Part shown: positions 1 to 1,255 of the stretch, in pieces
Numbering within the stretch: the stretch's first letter is position 1
Layout: each line of letters begins with the position of its first letter
IMG/VR virus record: IMGVR_UViG_3300025112_000010
Span: 1 to 64,000 of that record
DNA: 64,000 bases
Reading direction: 5' to 3' (one strand)
From: a virus
The notes under the pieces: generated by a model
What the model saw: only the letters and a program-made list of their open reading frames with translations
Databases searched by the model: none
What the model was told of the DNA's origin: nothing
Program-made: the position numbers and the translations under genes

Positions 1-120
1 AGATCCTGCGGCCCTGCGGACCTGAGATCCTGCGGCCCTGCGGACCTGAGATCCTGCGGCCCTGCGGACCTGAGATCCTGCGGCCCTGCGGACCTGAGAT
101 CCTGCGGCCCTGCGGACCTG
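1..120. repeat. Five perfect tandem copies of a 24-bp unit, AGATCCTGCGGCCCTGCGGACCTG, at the window edge. It may continue beyond the window.
   Basis: Direct reading: the unit repeats exactly five times from position 1. Each unit contains an internal CTGCGG duplication. Confidence 0.9.
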
Positions 121-284
121 GGGCCCTTGCCCAAAAAGGAGGCTTTTGGTACAATTCCAATATCGGCATATTTTGATATTAGAATTTTAACCATTGGCAA
201 AAGTTGATGCGTTAAACCGGACTTTTTTGTCCAGTTTAAAATTCTTAGTGTAGATTCGACACAATGATCCACTAGGGGGGTGTG

Positions 285-362
285 CGGTTTCGACCGTGCG
301 TATTAGCACACCCCCTGCACAGGTGTGCGATTTTGACCGTGCGTATTCGCACACACCCTGGT
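285..362. repeat. Two ~38-bp direct repeats, each containing an inverted repeat GTGTGC...GCACAC.
   Basis: GTGTGCGGTTTCGACCGTGCGTATTAGCACACCCCCTG and GTGTGCGATTTTGACCGTGCGTATTCGCACACACCCTG read directly. Confidence 0.75.
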
Positions 363-470
363 CAGGGGGTGGTCGTATCCGCGCGCTTCCCAAAAGGGGG
401 GTGGTCATATCCGCACACCCCCCGGATGGGGGGTAGGGGGGCCGGAGGGGGGCTCCTGGCTCCTGGCCCC
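363..470. repeat. Direct repeats GGTGGTCGTATCCGCGC and GGTGGTCATATCCGCAC, followed by four or more runs of 5-6 G (potential G-quadruplex).
   Basis: Read directly; G6 runs at about 396, 428, 436 and 447. Confidence 0.6.
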
Positions 471-620
471 CAGTTTTTCAACTTTTTCGGGTTTTCAACT
501 TTTTTGGGATTCCGAGAAAAAAACCTGAAATTTTGGAAATTTTCTTCCTATAGGGACAATTTTAGATGTCCCCCTCTAATGGAGTTTTTTCTGCTCCAGT
601 TTTTCAACTTTTTCTGAGGT
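471..620. repeat. Three T-rich iterons, GTTTTTCAACTTTTT(C/T), at about 473, 491 and 599.
   Basis: Read directly; non-coding context. Confidence 0.6.
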
Positions 621-1255
621 CTGGGGAGCAGCCCCCGCTGGTGAGGGGTTAGGCTTTTCGTCCCGCTCGCATCGATTTTGCGATTCGCCGCAGGTCGTCG
701 CAGACGACTAGCTCTTCTGGGGGAATGTACCAGAGACTTCCACGATGGCTGTAGAGAGCCTTCACCGGCATCGCGAGATGTTTTCCCCTGCTCCTCTTGC
801 AGGCTTCCCAGCAGTCGCTGTAGTGCCTTGGGCACTCGATATGCCACGTCATGCTGGTGCCTCTCCCGCCAATTAGAAAAGTCCTGGGGAGCTGGTGTAG
901 AAACCGCTCACCCAGGACTCTCAAACACCCACAACCCATTCGAGGGATTACCAACCTCGAAGGAGTCAAACACCTTCCCCGCGAGAGAGGAGATTACCCG
1001 CAACCTCTCTCGCAGAATCACAGAGGATAGTGTATCACCTGTCTGGACGTTTGTCCAATGGGGGGTTAGCAGCTTTCCTTGGAATTGTTTGGAAATTCTC
1101 CCGGCGAATCCTGGGAGCGTTTTGGAGGGTGTTTTTTGAAACTCAAAAATAAAGGGGGTAGGGTCGTTTTTTGGGACCTGCTCCAGGGAAAAAGTGGTTT
1201 TCGATTTTGCCTGGGGGAGGGGGAGGGTCAAAGTCTCGCCACATAATAGGAGAAA

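Follow-up and report, generated by a model that had tools for sequence, protein, structure and literature searches.

Two identical tandem arrays bracket a block-replaced gene cassette in an uncultured marine phage

In the replicons of P1 (oriR, incC-repA-incA) and F (ori2), two iteron arrays flank the initiator gene, and ColE1 RNA II is a precedent for an origin that is activated by transcription. Among phages, the terminal repeat of T5 has a repeat-rich end, cluster A mycobacteriophages have stoperators scattered one by one over their entire genome, the PeSL promoter/stem-loop element is a single element of ~50-70 nt, and Dunn and Studier are said to have described in 1983 that short-repeat arrays, SRL and SRR, flank the terminal repetition of T7. 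PeSL cassettes mediate modular shuffling in T4-type phages (PMC2839356, PMC4122927), and the latter source characterises PeSL as a composite promoter-terminator motif. The left terminal repeat of T5 contains untranslated repeat regions and an injection-stop region (Davison, bioRxiv 10.1101/866236), and P1 iterons as well as RNA-based prophage origins have also been described (PMC7157519). The locus that is compared with these systems here lies at the start of a 64,000-nt stretch of an uncultured marine tailed phage (IMG/VR virus record IMGVR_UViG_3300025112_000010, positions 1 to 64,000), which is referred to as the window and to which positions refer unless a contig is named. The window opens with a tandem array of the 24-nt unit AGATCCTGCGGCCCTGCGGACCTG, followed by a gene-free structured region, and an original prediction had taken the two together for a genome terminus, a pac or cos region, or a replication origin with iterons. 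As detailed below, this array is part of one of two identical arrays that bracket a gene cassette of ~3 kb in direct orientation, and in a related phage everything between the conserved borders of this island is exchanged as a unit.

The five exact 24-bp copies that had been noted at the window start are indeed present and are far above chance, as a search for AGATCCTGCGGCCCTGCGGACCTG with up to three mismatches gives five matches in 64 kb, all of them in 1-120, and none in 100 shuffles. The unit is composed of three related octamers (CCTGCGGC, CCTGCGGA and CCTGAGAT) and contains one GATC. Position 1 falls within the array and not at its edge, and other contigs hold 135-153 nt of it and then go on. 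When metagenome contigs were scanned for the 24-mer, four were found (L007 to L010). L009 and L010 enter the array from the left, with 9.7 kb more of phage DNA, and the 3.2-kb contig L008 has the array at both of its ends, in the same direct orientation. The array has exactly two entry junctions, one from the left flank and one from the 3' side of L008, and exactly two exit junctions, of which one leads into the window and the other into the 5' side of L008. Each of the two arrays comprises at least six exact units, and array 2, whose full length 141-mers do not resolve, is longer than ~140 nt.

The order of these parts in this phage can be told because in a close relative a 45-kb contig, L030, is contiguous through the region. 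It runs unbroken from DNA that is ~97% identical to window 128-1290 into an array of 7 x GGGCACCGATCCTGCC, then into a homologous cassette and into the start of a second 16-nt array, and in L033 the relative's 16-nt unit is found at both cassette ends. Read in the orientation of the window, the most likely layout is thus a series of small genes of the KRLY family, the left border, a region of recurrent short words, array 1, the cassette, array 2, the right border and a further KRLY gene (Table 1).

Table 1. Features of the island and its surroundings (window positions unless a contig is named; a dot stands for no strand)
Feature	Position or length	Strand	Remarks
KRLY mini-genes, at least 15 in tandem	L009 3.7-8.3 kb		left of the island
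Conserved left border	~900 nt		between KRLY genes and word region
Word region	437 nt		left of array 1
Array 1	at least 153 nt		left of the cassette
Cassette (L008)	~3 kb		genes of 116, 366, 75 and 127 aa plus ~700 nt non-coding
GP88 (PF17338), 366 aa	L008 536-1636	-	radical-SAM-like; homologues P0002-P0120
Array 2	at least 135 nt		right part is window 1-120
Array 2, right-hand 120 nt	1..120	.	5 exact contiguous copies of AGATCCTGCGGCCCTGCGGACCTG; Tandem Repeats Finder score 240, 100% matches
Right border	121-648		followed by KRLY-family gene 649-852, a 440-nt gap and a 60-aa gene at 1294-1476
Sigma70-like promoter TTGCCC-17-TACAAT with TG extension	127..155	+	faces right, away from the array, opposite to all genes
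AT-rich stretch	143..270	.	33% GC against 52-56% around; exact 10-bp inverted repeat 181-190 / 236-245
GC-rich block	271-470		67% GC; holds six 14-bp boxes
Long-range inverted repeat	275-295 / 403-423	.	21 nt, 86% complementary; encloses the box cluster
Two 43-nt direct repeats	279-321, 322-364	.	86% identical; each with two adjacent 14-bp boxes and a GGGGGTGTGC / GCACACCCCC hairpin
Six operator-like 14-bp boxes, GTGC-N6-GCAC or GTGC-N6-GACC	282..416	.	starts at 282, 296, 325, 339, 371 (degenerate) and 403
GGTGGTC(G/A)TATCCGC	368-382, 400-414		
Four G6 runs	396-401, 428-433, 436-441, 447-452	+	57-nt span; complementary to neighbouring C runs
Two adjacent T-rich repeats (CCAGTTTTTCAACTTTTTC, GGGTTTTCAACTTTTTT)	470..505	+	directly after a GGGGGCC...GGCCCCC hairpin
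Hairpin TGGAGTTTTTTCTGCTCCA, then third T-rich repeat	580..614	+	intrinsic-terminator-like; scores as terminator
67-aa gene, 'P.KRLY' small-protein paralogue family	649..852	-	ends the gene-free stretch
Second gene-free gap	853..1293	-	three sigma70-like promoter matches on the gene strand

The start of the contig at position 1 is an assembly break, the array being impassable for short-read assemblers. Contig L001, assembled independently with MEGAHIT, has no mismatch to the window in 2000 nt and likewise breaks off in this array, 135 nt into it. At the ends of ten contigs, array stubs of 38, 77, 81, 89, 97, 98, 111, 120, 123, 126, 135 and 153 nt were found, in arbitrary phases, and such arbitrary lengths and phases speak for an unresolved repeat and not for a defined cut site. 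A perfect repeat at the edge of a window or contig is first of all a symptom of assembly, and in this case the edge hides ~4 kb, namely the second array and the gene cassette, that are missing from the long contig.

In the related phage, everything between the ~97% identical borders is replaced as one block. The borders of the two phages are 95% identical over the aligned stretch including the arrays and ~97% from window 128 on, and the homology between the window and the relative begins right after the array. Inside the island, cassette proteins are 61% and 52% identical to those of the relative, and the array units, 24 nt here and 16 nt in the relative, have only the 8-nt core GATCCTGC in common, for which a rough estimate of the chance expectation is ~0.01. 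The perfect identity of the repeats had been thought to imply recent expansion or a strong functional constraint, but a constraint on their sequence does not follow from it, as the close relative has a different and equally perfect unit at the same place.

Together with the arrays, the short words of the island differ between the two phages. They include CCTGCGG, GCCCT, GGTTTG and CCTCCTG here and CTCTGCT, GCTTGGG and GGTTGCT in the relative. The word region has only 14 A in 437 nt on the + strand, ten of which belong to the central palindrome CTCCTAACAATAGGAG, and its A-free runs reach 126, 108, 90 and 88 nt, compared to a maximum of 56 nt in the 64-kb window. GGTTTG occurs 25 times per kb in the word region, 16.5 times per kb in the cassette and 0.34 times per kb in the rest of the window, and in the cassette it is split between the strands 38 to 4. 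The commonest 7-mers of the cassette are enriched ~15-160-fold here and ~6-57-fold in the relative, the two sets being different. No clear periodicity was found in the word DNA. The same words make up C/A-rich leaders ahead of every cassette gene, and some are part of a coding sequence, since the 116-aa cassette protein, a membrane protein, has a low-complexity tail that is translated from them. More distant loci with a homologue of GP88, the 366-aa cassette protein, have lineage-specific clusters of short repeats beside GP88 (GCGCTTGG in about ten copies, CGGTCGTCTCC, and CCCTTCC with GAGATC), and all of the dialects seen contain T runs in a G/C context. While the array taken alone is ordinary, an array-bounded cassette that carries its own dialect is unusual. 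As an example of a phage module that is block-swapped between near-identical genomes, the island is unusually clean, with identical perfect arrays as its boundaries and a vocabulary of its own that is enriched 6- to 160-fold, is strand-specific and has almost no A on one strand.

GP88 is the largest of the four cassette proteins and the only one with a family match, as none was found for the 116-, 75- and 127-aa proteins. For the 127-aa protein there are no homologues beyond itself, and a model from the single sequence was unusable (predicted local distance difference test score, pLDDT, 42). The search with GP88 gave 1272 homologues, many of them on contigs of 30-150 kb. Three invariant cysteines lie in its N-terminal half (C157, C163, C167) and three further cysteines near the C-terminus (C337, C341, C351). 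The predicted structure, a confident model (pLDDT 91), is closest to radical-SAM enzymes, with spore photoproduct lyase, a DNA-repair enzyme, in first place. A Foldseek search of the model against the PDB gave no significant match, and neither phmmer against the PDB nor a literature search for PF17338 returned anything on function. GP88 was also considered as a Rep-type initiator and rejected, the model being radical-SAM-like. In two long contigs GP88 heads the transcription unit at a divergent junction, and the family is common on contigs of phage size, where GP88 often comes first in an early transcription unit. In the 700-nt non-coding part of the cassette, a motif family of the form GACGTAAGTC...TATA...GACTTACG is present twice (L008 2487-2510 and 2868-2900) and also in L031. 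A relative has conserved it, in one instance with TATATA at the centre of a 9-bp inverted repeat, and it may be a cassette-specific operator or promoter.

The right border, from the end of array 2 to the first gene, contains most of the elements that had been listed in the original prediction, some of them in another form. At the place of the rightward promoter the relative has TTGCAC-17-TATAAT, which is closer to consensus, and sigma70-type signals are plausible in this host because a recurrent element on the gene strand of this phage carries TTGACG-17-TAAGAT. All GTGC-N6-GCAC and three of the four GTGC-N6-GACC matches in 64 kb are inside the box cluster. Two more GTGC-N6-GCAC boxes are found in the left border (L009 8996 and 9029) and none in the cassette, a distribution which indicates that the boxes belong to the conserved backbone and bracket the island. 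The two direct repeats, described before as 38-bp units with a GTGTGC/GCACAC inverted repeat, do exist with such an inverted repeat, but the units are 43 nt long and 86% identical. Each contains GGTGTGC...GCACAC, the exact 10-bp inverted repeat being 276-285 / 306-315. The larger inverted repeat that spans 275-423 has the potential to form a cruciform or an RNA multi-helix structure. The duplicated GGTGGTC(G/A)TATCCGC element and the four GGGGGG runs within ~60 nt were both recovered, the last of these runs being interrupted in the relative. A G-quadruplex potential had been ascribed to the runs, but 396-452 fails the standard pattern of four tracts of at least three G with loops of 1-7 nt, since only three of the runs lie close together, with 27 nt between them and the remaining one. 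The only site in the window that fits this pattern is at 8199. As to the three T-rich repeats, exact copies of TTTTCAACTTTTT in the 64 kb are confined to 475, 492 and 601 (expected 0.06), so the repeats themselves stand, but the label of iterons is not supported, as they sit just 3' of hairpins and look more like terminator tails. They were also considered as promoters of the - strand and rejected, as TTGAAA is present with no usable -10. The absence of any credible open reading frame (ORF) is correct for 121-648, beyond which 649-852 (-) is a real gene of 67 aa.

From these sequence features it is proposed, with moderate confidence, that the arrays may be module-specific protein-binding iterons and also recombination boundaries, situated in an early control region or an origin-like region. 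They would be iteron or operator arrays that are read by a factor travelling with the cassette, and being long identical direct repeats they would double as boundaries at which recombination swaps the cassette or removes it. The conserved borders would carry control sites that are specified by the backbone, with GTGC-N6-GCAC palindromes on both sides and the outward sigma70-like promoter on the right. This promoter would transcribe the AT-rich stretch and then the GC-rich block with its hairpins and G runs (+ strand), up to the hairpin-plus-T-tract stops at ~470-505 or 580-614. The whole would be an early control region, possibly a transcription-activated replication origin with iterons, and not a packaging site or genome end. 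Iterons are at least three direct repeats of ~17-24 bp with regular spacing, and the array is of this kind, the relative having 7 x 16 bp. As an AT-rich unwinding region, window 143-270 with its 33% GC qualifies. The earlier suggestion of an origin with iterons is in this way partly supported, by a tandem array beside a 33%-GC stretch and a promoter, but a recognisable initiator, a DnaA box and a change of skew are missing.

Several observations weigh against the proposed iteron and boundary function. No recognisable Rep-type initiator is linked to the arrays, and DnaA boxes, searched as TTATCCACA with at most one mismatch or as TT[AT]TNCACA (the E. coli consensus, which may not be that of the host), were absent from window 1-1500, L008 and the left border. 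The GC skew does not change its sign across the island, the 16-nt period of the relative is atypical for iterons, and a simple binding-site model does not account for word DNA that is dense and aperiodic. The conservation of 121-648 is indistinguishable from recent common ancestry, given that there is one close relative. Contig L007 joins the left flank to the window via a single array of 108 nt, with the cassette absent (no mismatch in 1174 nt to L009 on the left and none in 1463 nt to the window on the right). It represents either a collapse through a k-mer cycle common to both arrays or a real variant that has no cassette. In some genomes the cassette may be absent or may be a separate 3-kb circle. 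The exact 366-aa GP88 protein was found solely on contigs of at most 3256 nt that are always cut at both arrays, and the junction inventory alone fits an integrated state and an excised circle plus a deleted phage equally well.

Of the alternative explanations, a genome terminus or packaging site, at which terminase cuts concatemers so that contigs end where the molecules end, would account for the many independent contigs that end in the array and for the long gene-free gap between two co-directional gene blocks, which resembles a concatemer junction. It is nevertheless very unlikely. Upstream of position 1, where the original prediction placed a genome end, independent contigs (L007, L009 and L010) carry the array onward into at least 9.7 kb of phage DNA, so that the DNA continues on both sides. 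The contig ends scatter over 38-153 nt of array in arbitrary phases instead of sharing one coordinate, as a defined terminus would demand, and the shorter array of the relative (112 nt) was assembled through in L030. A partial scan for terminase, covering ~20 of the larger window ORFs and 12 ORFs in the 19 kb to the left, gave no match, with the reservation that adjacency to terminase applies to cos and pac types and need not be followed by phages with direct terminal repeats. What remains of the earlier interpretation is a structured, gene-free region of non-random repeats that looks cis-acting, and the genome end is not supported. An unlikely, although less remote, alternative is a gene for a structured non-coding RNA, in which the promoter at 127-155 makes a + strand RNA of ~320-450 nt (from ~160 to 490 or 614), the 43-nt repeats, the boxes and the G/C runs being its hairpins, and the array is incidental. 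Such an RNA could be an antisense or regulatory RNA, or a replication primer similar to ColE1 RNA II or to that of mycobacteriophages. In its favour, the promoter is conserved, its copy in the relative being nearer to consensus, it is followed downstream by a hairpin plus T-tract, there are known RNA-based origins in phages (PMC7157519), and at 160-615 the + strand folds 21 kcal/mol better than the - strand (-192.9 kcal/mol with a z-score of -9.6, compared to -171.4 kcal/mol with a z-score of -7.4). Both strands, however, fold far better than shuffles, as any DNA with inverted repeats would, and diverged homologues were not found. Rfam 15 has nothing in the window at the gathering threshold, the best match in 1-1500 having 16.6 bits against a cut-off of 100 bits, with an E-value of 0.9.

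It is somewhat more conceivable, yet still rather unlikely, that the island is functionless hypervariable simple sequence, in which arrays and words are by-products of replication slippage and illegitimate recombination in a hyperplastic region, of consequence only as patches of homology for the shuffling of cassettes (as with PeSL-flanked cassettes of T4-type phages), and ordinary promoters and terminators are confined to the border. The complete turnover of unit and vocabulary between phages with ~97% identical flanks fits this explanation, as do the aperiodic word DNA and the alternative junctions (L007 without the cassette, and L032, which skips array 1 via shared words), and PeSL offers a precedent (PMC2839356, PMC4122927). 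Against it speak the arrays, which are perfect and identical within each phage and have the core GATCCTGC in both units, the strand-specific vocabulary that reaches into leaders and coding parts of the cassette, and the similar repeat clusters beside GP88 in distant lineages. A more far-reaching idea, which is quite unlikely, is that the island is a self-contained exchangeable module with its own dialect, in which a cassette factor, perhaps GP88, recognises the private words and arrays and thereby marks or controls this DNA. The marked stretch could be an origin or an early-injection region, and the module could be excised as a ~3-kb circle by recombination between its arrays. If this were true, it would be a previously undescribed cis/trans module of phages in which enzyme, binding arrays and vocabulary are swapped together. 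If, as in the preferred interpretation, the arrays bind a factor encoded by the cassette, the two phages would provide matched natural pairs of protein and site, with 24-nt and 16-nt units, and a handle on the function of the widespread and uncharacterised GP88 family. If the region is an origin, it would be the replication start of a phage lineage without any cultured relative.

Some further readings of the array were examined and rejected. All three frames of the - strand are open in the array (with RSAGPQDL repeats, for example), and in L007 ORFs of 169-199 aa span it, but this is no evidence for coding because a T-free strand has, by construction, neither stop nor start codons. Clustering of GATC as a Dam/SeqA signal was dismissed, as GATC is not depleted elsewhere (371 observed, 245 expected). 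It is no CRISPR array, as the units are contiguous, with 24 nt from start to start, and there are no unique spacers, and for a centromere-like partition site (sopC, parC or parS) there was no match to the ParA, ParM or ParB families in the cassette or in the scanned neighbouring ORFs. Scans for promoters and terminators found none within the array, nor any where L008 ends in its arrays, and the unit has no inverted repeat.

On the far side of the left border, L009 3700-8300 holds at least 15 tandem paralogous mini-genes of ~40-70 aa, and one more copy is the gene at 649-852 (-) on the window side. They are characterised by an invariant P.K.LY motif, mostly in the form [VIL]P.KRLY, which is followed by an aromatic-rich tail. 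The alignment of the family is weakly conserved, and the one copy that was scanned (window 649-852, against NCBIfam only) gave no family match. The mini-genes look like an expanded early-gene family. Another repeated element of ~79 nt precedes small genes in intergenic positions (2114-2192, 2837-2915, 3111-3189, 10866-10944, 11637-11715, and also ~9358). On the gene strand (-) it carries TTGACG-17-TAAGAT preceded by A/T-rich AAAGTTT words, and it is probably the early or middle promoter family of the phage.

All long ORFs of the window are on the - strand. They include a tape-measure protein, a family-A DNA polymerase, DnaB-like and superfamily 2 helicases, SbcD-like and Cas4-like nucleases and a Dam-type methylase. 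The same phage recurs in several marine metagenome assemblies (JGI, ENA, Logan). Among ~50,000 GenBank phages there was no DNA similarity match to window 1-1500 or 1-25000, and the closest DNA polymerase is ~26% identical to that of the window. Searches for tRNA and tmRNA found nothing. The neighbouring 105-aa protein led to no IMG/VR relatives, and the Dam methylase led to 18 IMG/VR loci, the closest of which (L011, 84%) stops 1.7 kb before the region. Exact scans of IMG/VR for the 24-mer, the core of the 43-nt repeat, the AT-rich border and the box motif gave nothing, nor did an exact scan for the 24-mer in 185,579 species genomes.

Several other observations concern the phage at large. There are many putative genes for DNA or sugar modification (L029 9153-14455, L030 5870-6691, window 44794-46536 and 60257-61441), which comprise a radical SAM protein, at least three glycosyltransferases, a PAPS-reductase-like protein, a MazG-like PRA-PH protein and Dam. 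Hypermodification of the phage DNA is thus possible and could be relevant to the strand bias of the word DNA. An 805-aa ORF to the left (L029 16157-18574, +) contains an intein with a LAGLIDADG homing endonuclease. The ORF looks like a papain-type protease and not like a terminase, and the intein interrupts it at its apparent catalytic cysteine (GSC...), upstream of a WGHAM histidine motif. At the other end of the window, a 210-nt tandem repeat (63020-63472; 2.2 copies, 77% identical) lies inside a large structural gene of the - strand that runs off the window end and has 675 aa in contigs L005 and L006. These two contigs come from independent assemblies and start at most ~40 nt apart in the coding region, ~600 nt past the window end (~64,600-64,640), and the shared break may be a second spot that is hard to assemble or microdiverse.

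In comparison with the described systems, the words of the island resemble the stoperators in being short, asymmetric, strand-oriented, much repeated and lineage-specific, and stoperators co-vary with a phage-encoded binding protein. Unlike stoperators, the words are confined to an island of ~4 kb, where they overlap and reach up to 25 per kb. With SRL and SRR of T7 the locus shares arrays of short words in the gene-free junction of the last and first genes, all genes being read one way, but the T7 arrays abut the terminal repeat and the physical ends, whereas here a gene cassette lies between the arrays. With PeSL the locus has in common that repeated non-coding motifs flank small variable genes which differ between near-identical phages, and that the cassette can be lost or circularised when the flanking copies recombine. 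The difference from PeSL is a tandem array of 16-24-nt units, the 24-mer having no promoter or hairpin signature and occurring nowhere else in the 64-kb window.

The similarity to the P1 and F replicons is more extensive, as (near-)perfect direct repeats of ~20 bp lie in tandem on either side of a few small genes that form a block, one of the arrays has an AT-rich stretch next to it, and each unit contains a GATC in a phage that encodes its own Dam-type methylase. Specificity determinant and sites would also travel together, and this would match the joint replacement of arrays and cassette. The locus departs from P1 and F in that there is no recognisable Rep, the largest cassette protein being radical-SAM-like, and in that DnaA boxes are lacking, the unit of the relative has 16 nt, the arrays are contiguous and exact where those of P1 and F are spaced and degenerate, and the word DNA has no counterpart. 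In the T5 left terminal repeat the blocks are inverted and have paired DnaA boxes, while the arrays here are direct and none was found, and the repeat regions of T5 are conserved while the enclosed genes vary, whereas the arrays are not conserved between the relatives. As in T5, two related repeat blocks are located ~3 kb apart around a poorly conserved coding stretch, and the untranslated repeat regions of T5 are the nearest phage phenomenon that has been described.

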